A stretch of DNA of 56,702 bases, filler included, from Sphacelaria rigidula (Eukaryota): the NCBI GenBank assembly GCA_964200075.2. It is 5 parts of 5 records of this genome, joined end to end, with 100 filler letters (N's around TTAATTAATTAA, not from the genome) between each part and the next. Parts side by side here need not be neighbours in the genome. Positions count along the whole stretch, not along the records: positions 22,723 to 33,982 come from CAXNAA020005152.1; 4 more parts are not named here. The stretch is one strand, 5' to 3'. Numbering within the stretch: the first letter of the stretch is position 1; each line of letters begins with the position of its first letter. The position numbers and the translations under genes are program-made. A model generated the notes under the pieces. That model saw only the letters and a list, made by a program, of their open reading frames with translations, had not been told where the DNA came from and made no database searches. Of this stretch, positions 3,724 through 29,765 are shown one piece after another.

Positions 3724-6700
3724 CGCACCTGAACTGACCCCCCAGGGATCCAGCCGTGGTCACATGATAGGCGTACCCAAGAAAAAACAAAACTTGAGCA
3801 CTCGTTGAAGAAAAAGAAGGAACAGAAGAAGTTGAACAGAACGATATAGTGGACTAGAACGTACGAAAACAAGAAACGAATAAAAAAGTCAACAAAAGCA
3901 AAGCACAGAAAGAAATAGCCGATTAAAAAAAAAAAAGGAAAATACAAAAAAGAAAAAAGAAAAAAAGAAGGAAAAAACGGAAACAGCCCTAAGAATTCAG
4001 GACAGCAGAGTAGATACCGACCCGCACCAGTGGTCACCGCAGAGCCACCGACTAAGGACATAATCAACAACCGATATGAGCAGCAGGATTCTTCAACTGG
4101 AGGCCCTCGATGCAGCAGCCTCTCATTTGTGACGGCGGTCTGATTCTCGTTTGTCCGCGTGTTGCCACGTGTCCTCAAACTATTCCGTTCCTTTTTCGAC
4201 TTCAATATGCCATTTGCCCATGTTCTTCGCCGCAGTGACCCAGTCGCATGCATCGTTAACCTCTACACCGTAGACGAACCATGCCCGTCGGGCTTCTTTG
4301 TGCGGGACAGCCCCTAGTGTACGCAGGTTCTCCTGGAGGTTATTCTTCCATTGCTTGGGGGGGGCGGCCGGCCTCCTTGGAACCTGTGTGGTTAACCGAT
4401 CTTGCATGACGCGATCACGAAGGCGCGTTTTCGTCTGCCGGACAAGGGCTCCCGCGAACCATAGTTGACGTTTGCGGATAGTCGTCTCGATACGTTCTCA
4501 GTTGGTCATCTCGAGCCCCGCTCTGGGTGAAAGAGTCTCGTAGCCCTGTCGATTTTTCCTGCGGAATCCAACCATTCGCAGCAAGAGCTTGTGATGGGCG
4601 GTCCGCAGACTGTCGAAGTCCTCAGAACTTAGCGTCCATGTGGCACATCCGTACGACAGAGCTTCTACCACCTCCGCTTTACGCAGTCGAACTTTCAAGG
4701 ATAGCTCGGCGTTGGGTCGGTCGTACAGTTGGGAGTTCTATTTTCGGATACGCGCCCACGCCGCGTTGATACGGCGGTTGATTTCGATAGACATTTTCGC
4801 ATCCGCGCTGATAGCTCCACCAAGGTAGATGAACTCCCCGTCTGCTTATACCGTTGACCCGCAGCTTAGATATCCAGGGCGGCCTCTGTGGGACTGGGTA
4901 CTGACTAAAGGCTCGTGGGCTCTGGCTTGCTCTCGGAGACCATCAGGCCGAATTCCCGGCAGATCATCACCATCACGGCCATCATCCGAGCAAGGCCTCC
5001 TGAGGTCCTAGACACTATACCGGCGTCGTCCGCGTAAAGCATTGTGCACAACGCGCGTCGCACCTTTCCCAGCGGTGTCTCTTCCACGGGTTCACCACCG
5101 CCACCGTTTGGCGCATCATCTAGAAGGGCCAAGTCTGAGACGAAAACTGGGTCCGCCGCAAACCGTTGAACGATCACTTCCACCAAGCCTGCTCCGAAAA
5201 TGTTGAACAACAGCGGGGGCGAAACGAGACCTTGTCTGAGTCCCAGGCAGACGTGGAACAACACTGAAGTTTGCCACTATCTAGCTGAACTCGAGCTCGC
5301 AATGCCGTCGTCAAACATACGGATGATCGTGATCATCCGCGACGGGACTCCGAACCGAGCAAGCACTTCCCACAGGAGCGTGCGGTCTACAGCATCGTAG
5401 GCTTTCTGCAGATCGATAAAGCACATGTTTGTTGGGACGTTGCTAGCCCGTCCCAACTCCTGAAGCCGGCGTACTATGAACATCTGTCTGTGGTCGATCT
5501 TTGGCGCCTAAATCCACACTGTTCTTCCGGGAAGACATCTATTTCCTCACAAGTATTACTGAGTCTGCTGGCCACGAACTTGCGCAGAACTTCAGCAGTA
5601 TGTACCACAAGTGAAATGCCTCTGTAGTTACCACACTCGGTCTCTTCTCTTTCTTCTTGTGCAGTACTTTGATAGTGACATCGTTCCATTCTTGCGGCAC
5701 CTCGCCAGATGTCCAAACCGCAGAGGTGATGCTTTGAAAGTGGTACAGAATCTCCGATGCCTCCCCGTTCAGTCCAAGCTTCAGGATTCCAGCAAGAATA
5801 CCATCCAGACCGGTTGCTTTGCCGTTCGACATAGCTGTCAGAGCCTCCTCGGTTTCACTTGGGCTTGGTGGGTCTCCTAGTGACAGCGCTATTGGTCGTT
5901 GAGCCATCTAATCGATGACGGTTCGGTCGATAGTTGCCGATACGGCGTTCAGCAATGTAGAAAAGTACCATCCCCATCTCCCGCTGATCAAACCTTTGTC
6001 CCGCAGTAACTTGCCGTCCTCATCTCGAATGTACTGCTCACTCTCGATTGGTCGTCTAGACAGTGTCCACCCTCCGTTGTACCGTCCTCTCATGTCCCCC
6101 GCTCGACTATACTCCTCTAGTTCTCTAGCATTCACATCCATATACTCGTCCACCCCAACTTGGATAACTTCTTTGACATTTTTGCATGCTGCTCGTAATT
6201 TGCGCCATGCGGGTTTATCTCGAGATGAATTCAGTCTCACACCGTTGATCTGGCCCTTTCCCTCTCCATTCAGGCTCGGAAGCCGTTCTGATTTCAGCAT
6301 CCTCGAACCACCCTGGTATACGTGGTTTTCGGGTCAGACGGGGTACCACCTTTTCAGCGGTACTCAAGAGTACGTCGGCAAATTTCGTGGCCAGTGAACT
6401 AACTCACTGTATCACCAGGTATACTCTGTTTGAGCTCGCTGGTGATGAGCTGGGTGAGCTGCTCACGTCTGTCGGGATCAGATACTATGGTCCGTCTGCC
6501 GATTGGTGTACCCCCAATTGGGGTTCGTCTAGGCCTGTTGTGTGCGAAGCGACCAAGGAGTCGCACTGAGGCGCACACGATGTTGTGGTCAGAGTCTGGC
6601 GAGTTTGGGGGTTGAAGGTGGACGGTGACATTGCAAACAAGCCTGCGGTGATCTTGCCGTGTGAGGATGTAGTCAATGCGTTTCTCGTCCACGGGGTGAT

Positions 6701-13206: not shown

Positions 13207-13988
13207 CTGGTTCTGTGCTCGTGACAAAAGTAAACGTAATTGATCGGCACGCAAGAGTTACCAAACGGGAAGATAGGCATGAGGTTAGATATTCGAGCAC
13301 GTGTCCAGAGGGAGCACAGAGCGTGCGGCAAGGCGTCGTGTTATTCTTAATTTTTGTCTCAGTTACCCCGCCCCCCCCCCCCCCCCCTGGGGCGAGTCCG
13401 TGGTCTCAAGGGATCAAGCCATCTCTCCCTCGATACACGCCTTGCATTGGGGCATCATGCATTGAATCTGTACTTCCGAACCGCGTTTCTTCGATATTCA
13501 CTTCCTCATGTTGTCGTCGACGAGAATCAGATATTTCTCCGCAAAAAACTCGATTGCATCTACCAGGAACCAGAGCCGCATTCTTCCGACGTATTTGGTT
13601 CAGTAGTACCTAATAGATCACGGGTGCGCGGCGACAGTAGGGTTGATGAAGTACACACGTGATATAATCCTTATGGATAAGACGTGTGCATTCCACCTGT
13701 GACCCTCGTCGTGTGGAAGATATAATCTTCCCCACGTGAGACAAAAAAAAAAGAAGGCGAAAACAAACAGAAGTCAATGTATCCTTGAACTATCTGCATC
13801 AAGTGAAGCATGTATAAAATAAAGCTGCGTTAAAATGGCGCCCCTTCGCCTCACGCAACAACTGGCCGCTGCTCTTACTCGAGCGAGAAGCTCCGTTCGG
13901 CTCTTCGTCCTGCATACCAATATACGTGCTGCATTTTTTGCCAGCTTCTCCACCCACACACCCACACAAAAATTGCTTACACACGCAC

Positions 13989-14573
13989 CTGGCTCTTGGC
14001 CAAATCAAACAGAACATTGAGAGTCTTGCGCAGCCTGGCGGAGCCCTCTTTTTGGACCATCTTCAGCACCGTTCCTGCCTTCTCGTCCTCAAATGCGCCG
14101 CGCCCCGCTCCTCGACAGCACTTACCCAAGGCCTCGGCCGCCGCCTCAGCCCTCCTGCTCGCATCCGTCGTCTCCCCGAGTATGCATGCCGTCCACAACC
14201 GTTCGAACACCGCCGAAACCGTCGTAACCCTGCCGTCGTCCAAGGCGCCTCCATCGCCGCCGACGCCAGTCCCGCTCGTCGGTTTTTTGTCGTCAGCAGC
14301 GGCCGAAAGTAACGACAAAGCGCCTACCGCGCCCACATTCCCGACGGCACGGCACGCAGCCACGTGCAGAAGGGATACCGGGTGTCCGATGGCGGCGACT
14401 AACGAGGAGAGAGCCATAGGCAAAGTATCGGTCGATAGAACCTCCCATCTTGAGTCACCAGAGGCGGAAGCTTCGGCGAGGCGGGTCAAGGTAGAGCCAA
14501 TAGCGCAGGCGGCGCCATGGCCCGTGCTGATCGCTCGATTGCTAAACCCTGCCGCCCCAGCCATCGTGCAGGG
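13989..14573 (-). CDS. ECM29: ECM29 exon 3
   Basis: TTCAG| acceptor; PCTMAG...GHGAACAIG...LFDLAKSQ; donor CAG|GTGCGT; 585 nt, phase 0. Confidence 0.8.
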
Positions 14574-14934
14574 CTGAATGTTGAATTTTGAGGCAATAAT
14601 CACATTGGAGAAGAAGACAAAATATGAACCGAGACAGACTTCCAGACGGTACCGCAGTCCTGCAGATTGAAAGTATGTAGACATCTAGGCGGTGAGTTGT
14701 TGGGCATTTACAGACATCGTTGAGAACCGAGCTGGAGCAGAAAGCAAGTAACAAATAAGATATAGCGGTGAGGTACTCATGCTTAGGCGTAACGGCGCAA
14801 TCTACACCAAACCATTAATAAATTTCAACCATAGAATCCCTCAACAGTAGAAATAGAAACGAAGTGAATACGGTTCTAACCATGCCCAGGAAGCGGTCGC
14901 TCGCATGCATAACTTCTCTGCATCTTTGTCCCAC

Positions 14935-15885
14935 CTTCAGTTTTAAGCCTAGAGCTCTAAGAAGAGGCACCAACTCCCCATTGGGATCCATGAACACCGC
15001 AGCCGCGCCCGTGATCTCGGCAAACGCCTCCCTGATGTCAGTTGACGCCTCATGCCCAAGCCATTGCTGCAGCCACGGTCCGCGAGAGGCCAGGTTTTTC
15101 GCCACGCCGATCGCCGGTGGAAGCCGCGTCGATCTCTCGGGGCTGCCGCCGACCTCATCCGCCACCGCCGTACCTTGGGCCGCCGGACTGACTACACCCG
15201 GTGACGAATCCCCGACGGCCATTTTCTGCAAGGCCACAGAAGCGGATCGATGCAACAAGACCATCTGAGCATGGCCGTGTTGCCCGTCGGTGGCTGACGG
15301 TGCAGATTTTAGCGTAGACTCGATGAGAGAGATAAACGCGTCGACAGCTTTCACCTCATTTTCGGCGCCTTCGCATTCCGTTGATGCCGTCACCGATTCG
15401 CTCGATGCATCGGTGATGATGTGCTGGTGGGGGTGAGAGTGCGCCCCGCGACATTCGAGTGCAAAGTCTAACGCGCGCGCTAGGGCCGCTGGAGGTAAAT
15501 ATTTACAGCTCACGGGCGCCGGGCCTCCGCCGCGCACCATTGCAGCAGCGTTATCGTCGCGAAGCGCGCCCAGAACGAATGCGGGGAAGGTCGGGTAGCT
15601 GGAAGGCCGTCCACGGATGTCATTATCGGTGCTACCGTCCGAAGCAGCGGGAATAGTGTGCGGCGGCGGGCGAAGGCCACGCGAGGCGACCGACCGGACG
15701 GCCGTAACCTTGTCGTCACAGAGAGATATGCACAGACGGCGGGCGGCGACATTGGAAAAATCGAAAAGCTCGCACGCCCACTCCACTGCGCATAGACGAG
15801 CACGATGTTCGACAGAGATGGCAGCACTCCACAGCAGGGACCACAACTCCGAATCTATCGTGCTCCCGGCGACCTTGTAGGCACC
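14935..15885 (-). CDS. ECM29: ECM29 exon 2
   Basis: Pyrimidine tract plus CATAG| acceptor; reads GAYKVAG...ARLCAVEWACELFDFSNVAARRLCISLCDDK in frame with exon 1; donor AAG|GTGGGA; 951 nt. Confidence 0.85.
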
Positions 15886-16032
15886 CTATGACGACAAACG
15901 GGGCAAACAAAATAGAGGCAACGGGGACAGAAGGCGACGAATCAGCTGTAGCTACTGCAATAGAAGGCGCGCAACTATTCCTCACCGTATTTCAAGCGTA
16001 GTGGCAAATCCACTTACTGAAACATTCCGCAC

Positions 16033-17682
16033 CTTCAGAGCCCCGAGGGCAGCGCTGATTTTGACCCTCAGCCCCGGCTCTTTTGCGGAAAGCTCAGAAA
16101 AGAGCAAACGTGGCACCGATGTATCCCCCTCGAACAATACAGGACGCCGCACGGCGATAGATGCCACCGACTCGTAGCACGCTTCGAGCATCGCCGTGTG
16201 CTGAATCTGCATCGAAAGTGACGCCCCAACTGATAGTGCCCCATTAGTGCCGCTCGCCTCGTTGTTCTGCGAGTTTGCAGAAAGCCCTCCCGCCCCTTCA
16301 GGCCCCGCTGGAGCAGCATTCATTGTTAATACTTTTTGCACCGCCTGGAGTAACAGTGGACCAACCATTGGCAGCACGGTGGCGTCGCATCTCGAAGCGA
16401 TGAACGCCGCTAGCCTTGCCCCGGCTGCCCGAAAACGCGCCTCGTTGGCACGATCGTGATGGGCCGCCCCCGGAGCTCTTGGGAGGGCACCGCTGCTCGT
16501 CGCGGCGCCTCTACTTACACCCGTGAAGAGCGCAAGGAATGACACTCGTACTGCCTCTTTTACTCGAGCCGCCGTTCCCTCAGGACACTCAGTCTCGAGC
16601 CAAGCTAGAGCCCGGACTGCAAGTGCCGCGGACGCTGGCGATCGTGCAGGGGAGACGCCCGCCGCCATCTGTACCGCGACCTTCCCTGTCCCCACGGGGA
16701 CTGGCGGCGGCGGCTTCGGCGGGGCCTGGCTTCCACCCCCGAGCACGAGGTTGAGGACATCCGCCGCTACAGCGGAGTCTCGCTGGAGTGCCCCAGTTCT
16801 GTCAGAGGACGACAGGCTTTTGAGAAGATCTTCTGCCGACTTCACCACCTCGTGATGTGTTCCTGCGGCCATTGCGAGGGCCGGTACCACGGCCGAGGCG
16901 GGGGTGAAGAGGTCGCTCTTGAGAGCTCTCACCACGGCGAGCTTTCGTCGGGTGAGCAGCTCCATCGGCCACGTCTTCTCTTTCATTGTGAGTCGTGCCA
17001 ACCCAGAGGGCGAAAGCCCGTGATAAGCGCTCCCTTCCCGCGTAAGGACCCCCGGATACAAAGCGACGTCGAGGAACCAGTCTGTTACCACCGCCAAATC
17101 GGCGACGTCCAGCTGCTTCTGCGTCGCCGACACTGCTGCCGTTGCTGTTGCTACTTGTGCAACGTCACCTACGGAGCCCTGCTGGGTGGAGTCACCTCCA
17201 CCGTTACCATCGTCGCTACGAAGCGGCAGATGCTCGAGGGCAACTAGCAAGAGGTTGAGCAGTATGTTTTGAGACATGGAGTACCGCTGGAGCCTGGATA
17301 TCCCGCGGGCGATCTCGGCGGCCACGACGCCCTGCTCGACCGCCGGCAGCCGAGGCACCCCCATTTCTAGGAAGGTGATGCTAAAGTTGAATGCGAAAGA
17401 AGTCGGCGAAACGTCTCGACAGACCGCCAGCAGCTGCGAGCACGGGAGCGTGATGGCGGGGTTGGGGCGCGCCCTCTTGCTCACATGACTGAGGATGTCG
17501 ATGACCTTACCCCGCACAGCCGGAGCGTCATTGAGCTTGCGTACCAACCTCGGTAGCAGCTTGTCAAGCACGGCAGGCAGCTTTGCGTCATCTGTTATAA
17601 CTAAGCGATGCAGTACATTTCCCAGGACTGCGATCTCTTGCTCGGTGCTCGCTACTCCAGCAGAAGGTGCTGAAGTTGCCAT
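16033..17682 (-). CDS. ECM29: ECM29 proteasome adaptor/scaffold (HEAT-repeat protein), exon 1
   Basis: ATG at 17682 (MATSAPSAG...). The N-terminus 'EQEIAVLGNVLHRLVITDDAKLPAVLDKLLPRLVRKL...VRGKVIDILSHVSKR...ITLP' matches the Ecm29 N-terminal pattern as I recall it. GT donor (AAG|GTGCGG) at 16032; 1650 nt, phase 0. Confidence 0.88.
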
Positions 17683-20378
17683 AGGATGTCGATGGAAAGC
17701 CGCAGATAGCGCTGTCTTCAGTCGACGCTGATGCAATCCTTGAAGGCGGGCGTCTCTATACTCTCGACTTGACTGCTGCTGTTCTTGTTGCAGCTGTTAC
17801 ACTGTCGATCGGCGCTAGCTACAGGTATCGCTGCGCATAAACGATCAACTTGTCTTCAAAATACACTAGAACAGCAGTGTGATGTATTCAGGAGCTCAGA
17901 TGGCATTGCAATGGTGCCGTGGAGACAAGCGTGGCGAAAGCTCTGAAGAGCGCTTATTACATATCTAGATTTATTTTGTCTTTTCAATTTATATATTTCT
18001 CTACGCGTACAATCAGACCCGTAGGTCAACACCGTTCCTCGTATTCTCAACGATTCGCAACCGTACTGTTGGCACCATAAGCGCAACACGAATTGGGGGG
18101 CAAATTGCCTGGGTGCTAGACGAACTCGATATTTATCGCTACTTGGAAGAGTACCTGAAGCTTCCGTCACGGGGACAGCTGGTGAGTGACCACCAGCATA
18201 GCTAGCATATAGCCTGGAGTTCTTCCGGGTTCGTTGTGAACCCAAATGGCATCCTGTATATATTTCCCTGATTTCACAACTCCGCTCCCTCGAGCTGCGG
18301 TTTGGCAATTTTGTTTGGCAAGTTTCTTCTGTGCGGTACAACAACAATTCCGTAGATATGGTGGAGCGGGCGTTGTTGCCTGTAATTGTCAGGCGTGACT
18401 TATACAGAACAATATTGGGTGCATGCTGTGTGCATTTCTTCAGCGTCCTGGTTAGGACGACGTCGTTGTCCTGCATCACAGTTTTGAGTACTTGCTTTCC
18501 CTCCCTTTTTCTTCCCTGGCGACCCGTGTGCATGTCGGAACGCTCTTCGCGAATGTAGGCTACATACAGGTCTTGTTTCCCTTTGCGACACTCCCGCTCT
18601 CTGGTTGTTCTACGATATGTACAGTACTGGGAGACGTTTGTGTGGTATTTGACCGGGTGCTATCTGCTTTTCAAGACAGGGTATGCTATATCGAGGCAGT
18701 GTACTGCGTATAATCGCAGTCACATCCAGCCCGATTGGCATACCAGGTGACTTGATACCGTGTCATGGGCAATCAGTTGCTTGTGGTATTTGTGGTGGTC
18801 TACCTAACGATTGTTCTCTAGATTGGTTGTCCTGTATAAATAGAAACCATAGTTGGGGTGATTGAAGGTCTGATACCTGGCCGCTGACACTTCCCCTTTC
18901 CTTTTGGTGGCGATCATGATGATGGTGATGACAATAGTCAGTGCTGCGTGCTAATTGGTACGGCTCTGTCAGCGATACAACGGCTTCATCGTGTCCTGCC
19001 TGCGTCTATATATGCACACAGCTTCGTCAACTGTCTGTATGGGGGGTGGTAAACCGTGGGTGTCCATCACCCATTGCCTTACCATCTGCTACGATTACAA
19101 AGTACTGACACTACGGTACTGATTATAGAGATACCTCTCTACGATTTAGAACATTCCGTACAGCACAGCACATCGACATTACAGATAGTACAGAATTATT
19201 TTGAGAATTGTACTGTGGTTTTGACACGTGTGCAGCGCGCGCCAAGAGTGCGATGGGGTCCCATGCGGTCGTCTTACTCAACAGCGGGCACTTTCATAGT
19301 GCAATACAACCAGTACAGTACAGATCTGTGCAAGTGCTGCGTTAGAGTTGGGTTGCATAGTCCATTATTCTGTGTTTGACGCGTACATATCTGTACCTCC
19401 TGCTGTACTCATGGTTTCCCTGTAACGTATAATGGGCGTACCACGAAACACCTGAAGTCGAGGCGCGGAAACGTGACGGCCTGCCAAAACCCCTTCGTTG
19501 CCTGATGTGCACGTCTCTGTCTCTTACGTTGAGACGTCACTCAAGCCACACCCTCCCTCTCTAGCCACCCGAGATTACTTCCTGAAGTGTTGATTGAAAC
19601 GCTTTGGGCGCCAGACCTCTTTTCGGAACAAAATTCGACATTCATCTCAGCCCCCAAAATTAAATCCATCGCCGATTGACCTTCACATTAGAAGTAGGTG
19701 GACCTCTCTTAACAATTTGCTTGGTCTCGACCCCCACCCAGATTGCCGTAAGCCCTATCATCGATTTAGCGTCGGAACCTCGTCATTCAACTGGCACAGC
19801 GTACCTATTACTTACATTAACACGTGGATCTGAACATGAACGTGTCGAGGAATGTGCGGGTGAGAACCCCTGACCGGCTTTGGGTCACAAGTCAAGAGCA
19901 TGTATTTCTTCACGAGGCCATTTTATGGGGTCCGTGTTATCATCGCAGGTGGTGCTCACTTGCGGTCACCTCTGCTTGAATACACCCGAACACCATGTAC
20001 ATTCTTTTTTTACTGTATGGTCTCGGAGTCTTTGTATCATCGGGGCAGTGCCGGCAGCGTCGAGTATAGAGCTCGGAAATGGTTAGTCTAACCATTAACC
20101 AGTTATATAATACATCATGATTTGGTCATTGAGCGGCGCAGCCGCGAGGCACAAAGCCCCCCCCCCCCCTTCACCCGACAGAGGGGGCCCCGCTGGAGGC
20201 GGCGTGCCGAAGGCACGTTTCTACGTGATTTGGCTTCACTAAAGCTCAAAAATACGTTGAAATGGGGGCAATATCCAGGGTCTGTGTGTAGCATACGTAG
20301 CCCGTAACGGTAAATAGTACTTCGAAGTAGTATAATACCATTATCCAAGATTTTCATATAACTATTTACCATTATCAC

Positions 20379-23275: not shown

Positions 23276-24257
23276 TCGTTCTCTCCACCCTCAAGATGAC
23301 GGGCGGGCCATTACACCACCAGGGCGCCGGAAATTGTCGCGCGAAACAAGCCGTTTTGAGCCGTTTTTTGAGGCAGTGCAGAAAGAACTTCATTGACCTT
23401 CATGTCGATATCCAGCAAAATATCAGTAGCTTGACGGCTCGTCCCGCAAAAATACACATACACAGGTGTGATGCTGTACACAACACGAATGAACCTCGTT
23501 GTTTGGGGGGGAGGGAAATGTACACCCCCGCTCTCACTTTCATCGTGGGATGGCCCTCAGGTCAAGACAGGCTCTCAATTTCCCTCATACATCTATCTTC
23601 GCCCTGGCCCCTCATTTTGTCACCATCTCCGGAATGCCACCGTATAAGTCTCTTTCACACTACAGCAAATAACCACTCGCACCCCCGCAGCCTGCGAACA
23701 CAGTCTCGTACGAGCCAGCCATCATCCAGTGAGCACAAAAAGCGCCCACATCACCTCAGGGCCCTGCCTGTTGCAGAGCCCCACACCCCACCCCCCACCT
23801 TGCCCCTCCCATCCTACTCCGCGACTCCTCACATAACAAGCCGGCGATTTCTCCAAGAAATCCTCTGGCCTGTTTCTCGTGACCCCTGCATCAAACCCCC
23901 TTGAATATCTTGGTCCATACAAGTCTTTGGCGTTCATCAAAGCCGAGCGCGAGATCACGGCCTTCTCGCACGACTCGTTGCTAATATACAGTATGGACGG
24001 GCGGACTTCAGTACATCGGCCCCTTCCTGCGCCATCCCCCGTGTTTCGACCTCTCGACTAAAGCCCCCTGAATATTTGTATCACTAATCTACGGTGTCAT
24101 GTTATTTATACTGTACACTACATCTTCTCTGTACATCTATTTGGGAGGTAACTGCACATCAACAGTTAATTTGCCCGTCCGCTATACATGTATACTGTAC
24201 AGACAAGGACAAACAGTAATGTGGTCACAAAGGTGAAAAAAAACTGTAAGATCAACA

Positions 24258-26627
24258 CTAGCGCGTGACCGTGAGCTGGTGGGAGTCAACCTTGGTGTAC
24301 ATGGCCCTCAGCGCTTGCAGTTGCTTTTCGTAATCCGCCCTGTCTCCATCACCACCACTTTTGCCACCACTGCCACCACCACGCTGCCTGACCACGTTTT
24401 CCCCCTTCACCCCCAATGGCACCGACTTCCGACGAGAGACCGGGGACGATACGGCGCCCGCTGGCAGCGCCAGCCCTGACTCCTTCCCAAGCGTAGCCAT
24501 GCCGCCATCCGCTTTCCTACTCAATGTATCAGCATCACAAATACCAGCGCCACCAATAGTGGCGCGCCTCCTTCGTTTCTTCGTTCGTCCCGCAGGTGTG
24601 CCACCAGCGGTTTTCTCTCGACGCGATGCTGCCGCTGCTCCCGCCCTCCCGCCGCTTCTCTTCGTGTCTCCACCGGCGTCGCCAGACAACGGACGTTTTC
24701 TGTTGCCTTTCGTTCCCTGGTGAGCACCGCCGCGCGCGCCGCCGACCTCGCCGACGGTCTCGTCGGCACCTAGGTTCGAGGAGCAGTCCTCCTCCAAAAG
24801 CCAGCATGCAGTCTGGCTTCTCCGTCTTGTCTCATCTTCTTCGTCCGACGACTCGAAGTAGCCCTTCGAACGTGACAGCCAAGCCGACAGACGAGATCGA
24901 GGCGACACGGCCTCATGCTGGTCCTCCCCAGCGGCCTGCGGCTTCAGTAAATCATTCCCTCCCACGTCTCGGTATTTCCCGCTAGACCCGCCGCCGGCGC
25001 GATCATCGCCCTTGTCATCCTCGTGCTCGTGCTCCTCTCGCTCCTCATCGTCATCACTGTCCCCGTCACCGTTGCGGTTGGTGGCGGTACCTCGCTTTCG
25101 TCTCTTCATTCCCGTGGTGGTGCGCTGCCTGTCCTTCTTACCGCTCTCCGTTTCCCCCTGAAAAGCCGTCACGGTCGCGGATTGCTCTTTGGAGGATTTT
25201 CTCGCCAACTGACCACGTGTCGGCTTGCGGGGCGACCGGCGATTTCTAGTAGGGGTTGATTTTGCGGAGAAGTTCGCAGAGGCGGTCGCGCCTGAGCCTG
25301 CGGCCGCGGGGGCGGCGACAGCTGGTGACTCGGACTTCTTCGGGCACCTGGCGGCGACCGTGGGTGGCTTTTCGGTCTCTTCCTTGTGACCACCTGGTGC
25401 CACTGTCGTGGAGGCATCGGCATTGCTATCCAGGTCGTCGCCGATGAGAGGGAAGTCGAACACTGAGCTTGGGGATGGTCCCGTCGGATCAGCAAGCAAC
25501 GGCGCGGGTGTCGATGATGCCACTTCGGATCCCACCACGCGCCTGACGCCAGCAACCGCAGGCGGTTTGTCGGTGCCCTCCTTCCGACCGTCTACTGATG
25601 CTGCACTTGCTGTTTGTGCAATGGACGCACCTGTATCCCTCTCGTCATCATCATCGCAGACATCGAAGTCGAACGCTGAAGTTGCGGATGATTGCGTTGC
25701 ACCGACAAGAGGCAGGGGTGGGTGTGTTGCGTGAGGCTCACGACTAGCACCACGAGTTGTCGAACGGGTGTTCTTGTGTCGGTTTGCTGCGCGGATGCCG
25801 GTGCCGACAGAGGTAGCCGCTGTAGCTCGTTTACTGCTCTTGTTAGCCTTTCCGAGAGCAGCAACATTGCTCTTCTTGGCCATGGGGGGCACTTTCGTCT
25901 CCGCGACTGCCGACCGTTTCTTCGTCGTTCCTGCGCTGGGAACAGATGACCTCCGCCTAACGCTCCCACTCGTGTTTTTCATGATCGCTGCTTTCGACGC
26001 CGGGCCCTTTATGTTGTTCCCAATGTTCTCCTTGTGCGGGCGAGTCTTCCCCATCTCAACCTCCTCTCCATGTTCTGCCCCCGCGCGCGTCGCTCTGCTG
26101 CTCTCTGATGAGGCACCGCCATCGCTTGCCCCGACAGATGTACCGTCCGTACCGGCATCAGAGGTTGCAGCAGTATCACCAGTGGCACCAGACTTTCGCA
26201 TCACTGTGCTCGTTTGCGCTGTTCTTGATGACTGCGTCAGATTGGTGGTGTTTTTCTTGGTCGTGGTGGTCGTCATAGTTTTGGCAACGAGCGGTTCATC
26301 GATCCGGGGCTGCGGCGATGATGATGACGAAGAGCAACCTCTGCCATCCCCCGTCGCCACGCAAGTGCCAGGGACATTGAGGCCGCTGCTTCTTTGGTTG
26401 TTGCCGCGTCTTTGCAGACGAGGGGAAGCTCGCGTCGGCGTCGCCGGGGGTTTCGTCTTATACCCACTCCTGGGGCCTACGCCAAGCCGCTTGGTGGTAG
26501 GTCCTCCTGTTGCTGCCGCTGTTCCTGCGGATGCCGAGTGTATTGAGAGGGTTGCTGCTCCCGCGGAGGGCGGGGCCGTTGTGATGGCATGGCACACGTT
26601 CTCCTTGTTACTGTTCTCTGCCGCCAT
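24258..26627 (-). CDS. Long disordered protein (~789 aa from first ATG) with KEN boxes, FDF motifs and a Sororin-like C-terminal motif
   Basis: Uninterrupted 2.37-kb GC-rich ORF, rich in S/T/A/G/K/R with basic NLS-like clusters. KEN at 26598-26606 and 26025-26033; FDF at 25665-25673 and 25452-25460; ends DYEKQLQALRAMYTKVDSHQLTVTR*. An upstream exon cannot be excluded. Confidence 0.7.
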   Translation of the reverse strand: MAAENSNKENVCHAITTAPPSAGAATLSIHSASAGTAAATGGPTTKRLGVGPRSGYKTKPPATPTRASPRLQRRGNNQRSSGLNVPGTCVATGDGRGCSSSSSSPQPRIDEPLVAKTMTTTTTKKNTTNLTQSSRTAQTSTVMRKSGATGDTAATSDAGTDGTSVGASDGGASSESSRATRAGAEHGEEVEMGKTRPHKENIGNNIKGPASKAAIMKNTSGSVRRRSSVPSAGTTKKRSAVAETKVPPMAKKSNVAALGKANKSSKRATAATSVGTGIRAANRHKNTRSTTRGASREPHATHPPLPLVGATQSSATSAFDFDVCDDDDERDTGASIAQTASAASVDGRKEGTDKPPAVAGVRRVVGSEVASSTPAPLLADPTGPSPSSVFDFPLIGDDLDSNADASTTVAPGGHKEETEKPPTVAARCPKKSESPAVAAPAAAGSGATASANFSAKSTPTRNRRSPRKPTRGQLARKSSKEQSATVTAFQGETESGKKDRQRTTTGMKRRKRGTATNRNGDGDSDDDEEREEHEHEDDKGDDRAGGGSSGKYRDVGGNDLLKPQAAGEDQHEAVSPRSRLSAWLSRSKGYFESSDEEDETRRRSQTACWLLEEDCSSNLGADETVGEVGGARGGAHQGTKGNRKRPLSGDAGGDTKRSGGRAGAAAASRREKTAGGTPAGRTKKRRRRATIGGAGICDADTLSRKADGGMATLGKESGLALPAGAVSSPVSRRKSVPLGVKGENVVRQRGGGSGGKSGGDGDRADYEKQLQALRAMYTKVDSHQLTVTR

Positions 26628-26939
26628 TCCTGCGCGCGCGCGTGTTGCTTCCGTAACGCCGTGTCTTTTTGCGGGGCGGTGTTTTGGGGGAAGGGTTGGA
26701 GCGGGCAAAAGGTGGATGGGGCAGGGATGGTGTCAGGAGACGCGGACGATTAAAAGTTACAGTGCATCAGAGAATAACGCGATATTGTAGTGTGGACACG
26801 CGGGAGAGGAGGTGCCTGCTCATTCGTGGGGCGTCACTCTGTGGCGTACTAAAGCGTAGCTGGCGCCTTGAAACATCCCGTCTGACTAGAACGCCCTTGA
26901 ATAGACAGGCCCAGTAGAGTTTACCCTAGTTTGGTGCAA

Positions 26940-27480
26940 GTTAGTCATGGCTGAGGAGTCCAACTGCCAAAACACGGTGCACTTTTAACCCCAGGGTACT
27001 CACTCTACTTTGGGGTTGGTATAGCGCTAGGGTCATGGTTTGACAACATCAAAACATACACCGACCAACGATTACTTGCGCCGGACAAGGATAAACCCGC
27101 CTCGACAAATCTTGCCCAGAGCGAGTCAGCCATGACGCCGTGGTACCATATGTAACTGCGATGCAATCTGTCCGACGCCAAAATCAATGAGCTGTGGAAG
27201 CCAAGCGTTGCCGACGACAGCCTCATGTTGATACAGTCCATGAGCGCCTCCGGCTCAGTGACTATGGATTGGGAATTGGCCGCACGGGTCATGCGACGCC
27301 AGGCAGCGCGCGGGCGCCCAAATATTAATCAGGATAGCCCACGCGAGTCCGGTTGCGGTTGCGTTGAGCATGAATCTCATCTGCAAGCCACGTATTATAT
27401 CTGTAGGCTTGACTCTTTAACCGCCGGAGTAGGCGATATGGGACACGCAGTGATTTCCCAAATTAAAGTAGTCACCGATT
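26940..27480 (-). mobile_element. Probable decayed Ty3/gypsy RT fragment
   Basis: WARFVEAGLSL...AIPTPK loosely resembles gypsy 'RLxxAGLxL...GIxPxPxK'; catalytic motif not recognisable. Confidence 0.35.
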
Positions 27481-29765
27481 GAAGAGGTGACCTACCCTGA
27501 CGGCCAAAGGGTTAACCCCTTCAGAGTCTATGCGCTAGCAAGCCGTTTTTCGTATTCCTCTGCCGGGAGTTCGAAACCATTATTTGGCGGAGGGAACAGC
27601 GCATTCATGTGAAAAATGGGGTCCGGATGTCCTTTGCAGGATGAGGGTTTGAATCAGTCTCGTGAGAAAGGGGTGATTGAAGTCGCCGTAGTGTTTGTGC
27701 GAGGAAATATCGTGTGTATGTAGAGATGTCAACGCGCGATTGGGCCATAGCTCATGGCCTCGCCTGGTGATGTTTGCACACCACCACCAGCTGCTCTTCA
27801 ACGGCGTATCCATCTCTGCTCTTTTAGGGGTCAACGGCAGCGCCAGTTGGATACGATGGCGTACAGGGTGCAGCCATCCTGTTCGCTATAAGCACTGCAC
27901 AAGCACAAGAAACACTACGGCAAAACCCCAACTTAGCCGCTCAATCATGTGCAGCAGCTGCGATCCTAGTGATCAAGAACGGAAACACGCGAAATCATTT
28001 TGTAATAGCGCCCGAGCGTCTTGCTATGATTTTCTTAGTCTACAACATCGCCATCCTCGACGGGTTTGTCAGGAGCTACACTACAACGGTCAACCCTTTC
28101 GCCGCCACGGTGGGTTGGACGGATTTGTACGGCAGCCAATCCCGAATCTATGCCAAATCGGGGGGACATAGATTCGTGAAACTCTGATTCGTGTGTACCC
28201 CTGTATGGATTCACAGATTTGTTGAAATTGTCCTGTACACCAACAGTCATTTTCTGGGGGCGGGTGTGGTCTCACAGTGAAGCCGAAGAACAGGCAGGCA
28301 GGGAATCATCCTTCGAGAGCACCGTCATACCCTGGTACCCTACGGTATAATGCAGTGCAGTACACTGTACAATCATAGTACAAGATAATACCGTGTGGTA
28401 AGACATGATGGTGCAGTCGATATTGCGATAGCAGTGCACAGTGTACGACAAGAGTTCACGAGTGCAGTGTCATTCACCACCCTGCAAGTACAGCGACAGC
28501 AGACTATAGGATAGTACAGTACCGTTCGTTATGATGATACATACAGCAGTACAGTGAAGTATAAAATATTGCCATTAACGCAGGGTACGGCGTCAACACT
28601 TCTTATCCGCTTTCAAACCCCGTGCAGAGCTGCTCCAGCAGCCGGCGCTCGCAGGCACTGTCTGTGCTATCACGAGACTGCTTCTGCTGTTGTTGCAAAA
28701 ATATCAAACGCATGTTGCCCAGTCACCGTACGTCAACATCCGCATGTGACTTGCTACAGATTCGGAGGACCTAGATTTTCCACGGATCTGCGCTCAGATT
28801 CGTGTGAAATCGTTCTCAAATCGTGACAACCGAATCTGAGCTTTCCCGATTTGGGCCAAATTGGGGTCCGTACAATACGTTTCCGGATCTGAGGTCCCCG
28901 GATCTGCTTACAGATCCGTTTTTGTGACCGCCATATAATACGGTCTTATCTGTCGAAATGAAATGGGCATATTTTTCACATGGGCATGGAATGTAAGACC
29001 ATCAGAATCACCCTCACTCTCACGGCGCATTCCCACTTTGTTTGTTTCGTTATAACATGACCTAACAAACGACAAAAGTGACGGTGATTTCGTGAGAGTG
29101 ATGGCAACGTGACGGTTCACAACTCCATCATCACAGGAAACGAGGTGCCATTCCTGTCGATGGGGGGGGGGGGGGAATGATACAAATGGAAAATTAAGTG
29201 ACGGTAACAACACGCAAACAGACCGGCGATTTCTAGCAGGGCGGCAATGACGCACAAGGTATATTGGCATTGTCGTGGGTCGAAACGCGGGCCGCCTCCC
29301 GCACGAGAAGGAGAAGCAGCATCAGCAGCAGCAGCATCTTTACCATCAGCAGATGTGTGCGGTTGAGCAGCCGGTGCTGATACTGCTGCTGCTGCTCTCC
29401 CTTGTGCCAGAGACGGTCCGCGTTTCGACTGCGCGACAACACCCACGCACCTTGCGCGTGATTGCCACCCTGCTGGGAATCGCTGGTCCGTACACTTGTA
29501 CTAACCACCGATGGGTCCATACTTGCTCACTCGGAGACGTGCTGGGAGACATAGCTGTGCGCATCTCTCTTTGGGATCTATCCACGTCGGGTGTGTATCC
29601 CAAGCGCGGCTACTGCTGGTGATGGGAAAGATAGCTGTGCGCCCCATGGAAAGCCGAACAGCCCACGCCATGCAACCATGTGACGTTCCTTTTCGCATCC
29701 TCACGCGAATGTTCACCCGCCCTAATGAAAATTGATTCCTCAACGATGAATTTTCGTGAGGCCGT

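Follow-up and report, generated by a model that had tools for sequence, protein, structure and literature searches.

The stretch of DNA analysed here (the window, 56,702 nucleotides from Sphacelaria rigidula) consists of five pieces of about 11.3 kb, joined by four identical N44-TTAATTAATTAA-N44-type spacers. In one of these pieces an open reading frame of 789 amino acids runs without interruption from an ATG at 26627 to a stop codon at 24258, and its product ends in the C-terminus DYEKQLQALRAMYTKVDSHQLTVTR. A preliminary description of this DNA had reported a frame of about this length; we find it intact and place it on the minus strand, the plus-strand frame over the same interval having many stops. 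The gene sits on a single contig (G000:C5152), and the last 60 amino acids match the genome once, at the gene itself. A protein identical to the product is present at NCBI and a 647-aa form of it occurs in a Logan assembly, their cluster having two members. The features of the locus and of the rest of the window are collected in Table 1.

The gene is real and transcribed, and its C-terminus is real in RNA-like contigs. Three sequencing runs (X1, X2 and X4), none of them on record as RNA, were taken as RNA from their cover. In all three, RNA-like contigs span 23818-26667 (one contig in X1, one in X4 and two near-abutting ones in X2) and the ORF is intron-free. Since these contigs run through the stop codon, splicing to a different C-terminus, which the preliminary description had named as grounds for abandoning its proposal, is not seen in the main isoform. 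The RNA-like depth is about 28-52 over this interval, and a DNA-like run has a depth near 70 that continues past 26667. Beyond that position about 100 nt of the RNA-like contigs do not fit the genome in any of the three runs, from which we infer an upstream exon of about 100 nt that is spliced to the exon carrying the ORF. Seven AAG|GT donor candidates lie upstream on the contig, none of which adds an ATG in frame within about 110 nt. On the downstream side of the gene, a short C-rich gap is followed by a second transcribed block of similar depth (22865-23725), which is either extra 3′ UTR or a separate transcript.

Table 1. Features of the candidate gene, its product and the window (positions count along the window; aa, residues of the 789-aa protein).
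Feature	Position	Strand	Basis
Candidate Sororin CDS, single exon (P0001), 789 aa and stop	24258..26627	-	ORF and RNA-like contigs
Putative 5′ untranslated part of exon	26628..26664	-	RNA-like contig ends
Putative splice acceptor AG (AAG, atypical)	26666-26665	-	Contig ends and context
3′ untranslated region	23818..24257	-	Same RNA-like contigs as ORF
KEN box 1, NKENV, aa 7-11	26595..26609	-	Motif scan
KEN box 2, HKENI, aa 198-202	26022..26036	-	Motif scan
FDF motif 1, S-A-F-D-F-D, aa 317-322, then acidic residues	25662..25676	-	Motif scan and alignment with motif 2
FDF motif 2, S-V-F-D-F-P, aa 388-393, then acidic residues	25449..25463	-	Motif scan and alignment with motif 1
Basic cluster KRRKR, aa 508-512, possible nuclear localisation signal	25092..25106	-	
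Internal aromatic-rich element, aa 583-614 (W583, Y590-F591, D595, W609), speculative weak box look-alike	24786..24881	-	
Basic cluster TKKRRRR, aa 682-688	24564..24584	-	Motif scan
Modest basic patch, aa 732-749 (6 K/R in 18), and 15-aa Gly-rich polar linker, aa 750-764	24336..24434	-	Read from sequence
Terminal Sororin-like box, aa 765-789 (L773, Y777, V780, D781, H783, L785, V787)	24261..24335	-	Consensus scan, Atlas lead, Sor1 comparison
ECM29 proteasome-adaptor gene, exons	13977-17796	-	ECM29_N, E=1e-50
Reverse-transcriptase fragment	4905-5276	-	RVT_1, E=3e-7
N spacers	11262, 22623, 33983, 45343		Window-building artefact

Elsewhere in the window, the reverse-transcriptase fragment is probably a retroelement remnant, and it was the sole Pfam match among the 60 shorter ORFs that we scanned. 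The ECM29 gene lies on a different contig and is no true neighbour of the candidate, because the window joins separate pieces with N spacers; synteny between the two was therefore rejected.

Composition and short motifs

The protein had been described as low-complexity and basic, which its composition (A 13%, G 12%, S 11%, T 10%, with 14 aromatic residues) and its net charge of +35 confirm. Both the composition and the ESM Atlas model (pTM 0.14, mean pLDDT 0.37) point to a largely unstructured chain, as is usual for a Sororin.

The enrichment of short motifs was judged against 2,000 composition-preserving shuffles, the p-values being post hoc. By this measure the two KEN boxes and the two FDF motifs of the preliminary description hold up, both exceeding what composition would give by chance: KEN occurs at aa 8 and 199 (2 seen, 0.09 expected, p=0.004) and FDF at aa 319 and 390 (2 seen, 0.002 expected), while for any F.F motif 0.05 were expected (p=0.0015). 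Basic runs are also enriched (5 against 0.5). The same cannot be said of the many S/T-P sites that had been reported, as 11 were seen against 9.5 expected (p=0.35), nor of full CDK sites (3 against 1.5, p=0.19). There is no D-box (RxxLxxx[NDE]) anywhere in the protein and no match to the YSR/PIM pattern ([KR][ST]Y..[RK]).

The two FDF segments are alike, each reading S-Φ-F-D-F followed by acidic residues (p=0.004, for regions chosen around the motif), and they form the clearest internal repeat of the protein. Apart from an Asp in place of Gly, they agree with the [S/T]ΦFGF consensus of vertebrates. The optional features of vertebrate-type Sororins, a KEN box and an FGF-type motif, are each present twice, the latter with this substitution. 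The internal aromatic-rich element contains both tryptophans of the protein. It has three of the 12 Sororin consensus positions in register, and its similarity to the terminal box is not significant. An internal duplication of basic cluster and box was also considered and is unsupported (p=0.19 and 0.86).

The terminal box

In the Sororin family a K/R-rich stretch is followed by a polar linker of 10-20 aa and then by a terminal box (PMC11148194). The end of the present protein has the same arrangement, its box being preceded by a polar linker and, before that, by a basic patch of modest strength; a strong basic cluster lies 77 aa upstream. The element that had been claimed for the extreme C-terminus is there; the protein ends QLTVTR, two residues beyond the sequence that was quoted for it.

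We scored the box against a 12-position animal consensus (PMC10656103) in which either F or Y was accepted for F. Six of the 12 positions agree in the top-scoring 20-mer of the protein, aa 769-788, and four in the next best. The control set comprised the ends of 8,282 other ORFs closed by a stop codon, drawn from the window and from retrieved loci; 57 of these (about 0.7%) score at least six. A single one fits a core pattern that was drawn up post hoc, after the sequence had been seen. The terminal helix is not outstanding by hydrophobic moment, ranking 11 among all 15-mers of the protein.

The conserved hydrophobic pattern of the Sororin box is found at the extreme C-terminus (L773, Y777, V780, D781, L785 and V787). 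In the S. pombe Sororin, Sor1, the residues F299, V302, D303 and Y305 are each required for function (PMC11148194). Three of these four functional residues have counterparts here, Y777, V780 and D781 matching the spacing of F299, V302 and D303. The second aromatic of the box (human F247, S. pombe Y305) is replaced by His783; Sor1, which has a single phenylalanine, retains Tyr at this site (PMC11148194). Human Sororin requires W233, F247 and E252 for binding (PMC12976308), and these correspond to Gln769, His783 and Thr788, so that three contacts are not conserved. Nor is the tail acidic.

Searches for relatives

The preliminary description had anticipated a match to a Sororin profile, and none was obtained. 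Neither Sororin_C nor Sororin_middle of Pfam matched the whole protein or its fragments at E≤10, with HMMER filters that lose most matches above about E 0.1, and a genome-wide search with the Sororin_C profile gave 0 candidates. A missing profile match is usual for this family, since the S. pombe orthologue was first detected at E=1 with a score of -4 (PMC11148194). A weak 10-aa match to Nup54_57_C of Pfam lay below the cut-off and was rejected, and a search of PDB sequences returned Gly-rich chance matches only.

It had also been proposed that the KEN, FDF and terminal motifs be followed through orthologues, and our word-based, phmmer and metagenome searches found none in which to do so. The word-based search with aa 735-789, run over proteins of length 433-1381, confirmed one of 118 candidates, namely the protein itself. 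A phmmer search with the last 34 aa among 1.84 billion representatives (E≤0.001) gave two matches, of which one is again the protein itself and the other is a repeat protein that we rejected as spurious. None of the 599 pattern matches in metagenome contigs was confirmed as an orthologue. Brown-algal proteomes are included in the collection where no orthologue turned up. Close relatives may be few, because the RAD21 exons of this genome score best against Chrysoparadoxa (141.8 bits) and then against Laminaria (128.6) among 119 homologues, which would put RAD21 nearest Chrysoparadoxa, ahead of the crown brown algae. The same ranking, with Laminaria in second place, supports only roughly the brown-algal origin suggested at the outset. 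The blanks for profile and orthologues lower our confidence without refuting the assignment, because accepted Sororins were first detected at E-values from 0.04 to 1 (PMC11148194).

A feature search of the ESM Atlas with aa 570-789 was blind to the Sororin hypothesis, and we give its result weight for this reason. Four of its 30 matches are listed here: an oomycete cluster without a name at rank 1 (0.82, 173/256 features), an unnamed arthropod cluster at rank 2 (0.82), an arthropod cluster with Sororin_middle in 18% of its members at rank 3 (0.80) and a CDCA5 cluster with Sororin_C in 87% at rank 7 (0.76). Six of the ten best family-bearing matches share the Sororin family or clan. Scores below 0.9 are leads only in this search, in which shuffled proteins reach 0.8 one-third of the time and which is uncalibrated for parts of proteins. 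With the last 45 aa alone there was no match.

Cohesin partners in the genome

The N-terminal exon of RAD21 was found in the genome, and brown-algal RAD21s retain Tyr3. Coiled-coil exons of SMC3 were also found, 69-75% identical to an unnamed SMC3 (P0133). The SMC3 head exons were not found with three DNA patterns and two protein queries and, the coiled-coil exons being present, this reflects the fragmented assembly or the limits of the search. P0133 is the closest stand-in, and its positions were mapped by motif spacing through cnidarian sequences; it has Arg, Arg and Gln at human L1031, K1034 and K1038. At the last of these positions most of the sequences counted have Gly or His: over 88 of the 121 SMC3 sequences, there is Gly in at least 25, His in at least 24 and Lys in at least 19. 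WAPL gave no match in the genome with a query that matched nowhere at all.

Some further observations concern the SMC genes themselves. No named brown-algal SMC3 is among the best 120 matches to an SMC3 N-terminal query, and named brown-algal RAD21s are in the same collection; this may reflect gene models, unnamed records or divergence. Besides exons of SMC1, SMC2, SMC3 and an SMC5-like gene, the genome has divergent SMC-like exons on G000:C1635 (L014, L015), G000:C6090 (L016) and G000:C199 (L011). They comprise two C-terminal head pieces, a hinge and an N-terminal P-loop and may be extra SMC paralogues. An intronless, GC-rich SMC gene of bacterial type lies on G000:C21433 (L003, L005), adjoining what we take to be a DNA-glycosylase gene, and is likely to be bacterial contamination of the assembly.

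Discussion

We put the probability that the 789-aa protein is a divergent Sororin-family cohesin regulator at roughly 70%. It most likely works as a Sororin does, although membership is unproven and one position of the motif is unfilled. Sororin is known for holding replicated chromosomes together. The protein is probably an expected but unlabelled member of the family, not something new. The Sororin proposal of the preliminary description remains the best reading. It has gained the Atlas lead and the agreement at three of the four Sor1 residues; its S/T-P argument has failed, and neither a profile match nor orthologues came to its support.

Our results concern the anatomy of the protein and its transcription; a mechanism can be drawn by analogy with published work (PMC10656103 and PMC12976308). 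The terminal segment would consist of a helix and a short extended tail, placed over the N-terminal helices of RAD21 and the neck of SMC3; Y777, V780 and D781 would do what F241/E245 do in human Sororin and F299/V302/D303 in that of S. pombe. As in animal, yeast and plant Sororins, it would hold the cohesin exit gate shut. The FDF motifs would replace the vertebrate FGF, bind PDS5 or the cleft of WAPL and compete with WAPL. The KEN boxes would mark the protein for destruction by APC/C-Cdh1 at mitotic exit, and its period of action would thus be S and G2. A more elaborate version, which we consider improbable, is that brown algae and their relatives have a multivalent Sororin variant, with a gate box carrying His783, a degenerate second box at aa 583-614 and a duplicated FDF. 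His783 could then co-vary with SMC3, whose lysine in contact with F247 (human K1038) would be lost.

The alternative that we take most seriously, unlikely as we think it is, is a lineage-specific disordered cell-cycle protein that is degraded through its KEN boxes and binds something else, its tail being Sororin-like by chance or by convergence. The blank profile and orthologue searches and the three altered contact residues would fit this, and a preprint on SMC evolution warns that short motifs may be convergent (bioRxiv 2024.01.07.573240). So would the control scan, since a rate of about 0.7% of ORF ends implies many chance candidates across a whole proteome. Against a chance tail we count the coincidence of terminal position, linker, basic patch, FGF-like motifs and KEN boxes in one protein, together with a blind Atlas search that pointed at Sororin clusters.

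It is much less probable that the protein belongs to another class of cohesin-associated proteins, one that engages PDS5 or WAPL through FxF motifs and resembles Securin, Shugoshin or the N-terminus of WAPL, and that the tail is incidental. Securin has N-terminal KEN boxes and is disordered, features that the present protein shares, and its KEN box is followed by a D-box, which the present protein lacks. Securin is listed as disordered and motif-defined in the same preprint (bioRxiv 2024.01.07.573240), FGF-type motifs occur in WAPL as well as in Sororin (PMC10656103), and the duplicated FDF is the clearest repeat that we find. However, no Pfam family of Securin, Shugoshin or WAPL matches, and the frame ends at the box with 3′ UTR beyond it, so that the main transcript has no WAPL or kinase domain further downstream.

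Finally, a non-functional frame, whether a long chance ORF in GC-rich DNA or a mis-modelled exon, can practically be dismissed: the GC content of 57-60% in the stretch, a 351-aa ORF on the opposite strand and the lack of a homologue would suit it, but the frame is open for 824 codons, RNA-like cover falls to ≤5 upstream (26782-28125), the 5′ end is apparently spliced, the motifs are non-random and the identical protein is at NCBI.

We retain the protein as a new candidate member of the known Sororin family. Sororin is reported to be broadly distributed and has been inferred in the last eukaryotic common ancestor (bioRxiv 2024.01.07.573240), so the novelty is modest. No publication naming a stramenopile Sororin was found in the literature covered, outside which lie the supplements likeliest to list orthologues. 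If the assignment is true, a concrete Sororin candidate can be named in a stramenopile alga, which supports dating the WAPL antagonist to the last eukaryotic common ancestor and offers a gene to knock out for the study of cohesion in multicellular organisms distant from animals, fungi and plants. His783, at the second aromatic site, and the joint presence of KEN and FxF motifs, which are absent in the plant and Sordaria proteins, would then tell which of the vertebrate features are ancestral. The known mechanism of Sororin would stay unchanged.

Comparison with known Sororins

Sororin is established in animals, S. pombe and Arabidopsis (PMC11148194) and has also been described in Sordaria (SMAC4_08091, 701 aa; PMC12758814). 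The candidate resembles vertebrate Sororin/CDCA5 (PF25220, PF09666) in its disorder, KEN box, [S/T]Φ-F-x-F motif, basic stretch, polar linker and terminal box, and it matches positions Φ237, F241, Φ244, E/D245, L249 and Φ251. It differs in that W233, N238, F247 and E252 are unmatched and no Pfam family is hit; it is 789 aa long against 252, has FDF twice in place of FGF and lacks YSR, a vertebrate feature (PMC10656103).

Like S. pombe Sor1, the candidate is not found at significant E-values; the two share the C-terminal layout and the spacing of Y777/V780/D781 and F299/V302/D303, and differ at the Y305 position, which is His in the alga. Fission-yeast and plant Sororins (313 and 222 aa) are shorter, the candidate being 2.5-3.5 times longer, and unlike it they are described as having no KEN box, and in egg extracts APC/C left Sor1 undegraded (PMC11148194). 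The preliminary description was therefore wrong to count them among KEN-box substrates of APC/C.

In length and disorder the candidate is closer to the long Sororins, which include the Sordaria protein and arthropod clusters of 739-783 aa (the second- and third-ranked Atlas matches to aa 570-789), a likeness of length and disorder without alignable similarity shown. The Sordaria protein differs from it in being described as without KEN and FGF motifs (PMC12758814). The top feature match, at 0.82, is the unnamed oomycete Atlas cluster (71 members), the only stramenopile cluster among the four matches listed. Its representative, of 137 aa, is much shorter than the candidate and has no Pfam family. 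This cluster may be the oomycete counterpart of the 789-aa protein.
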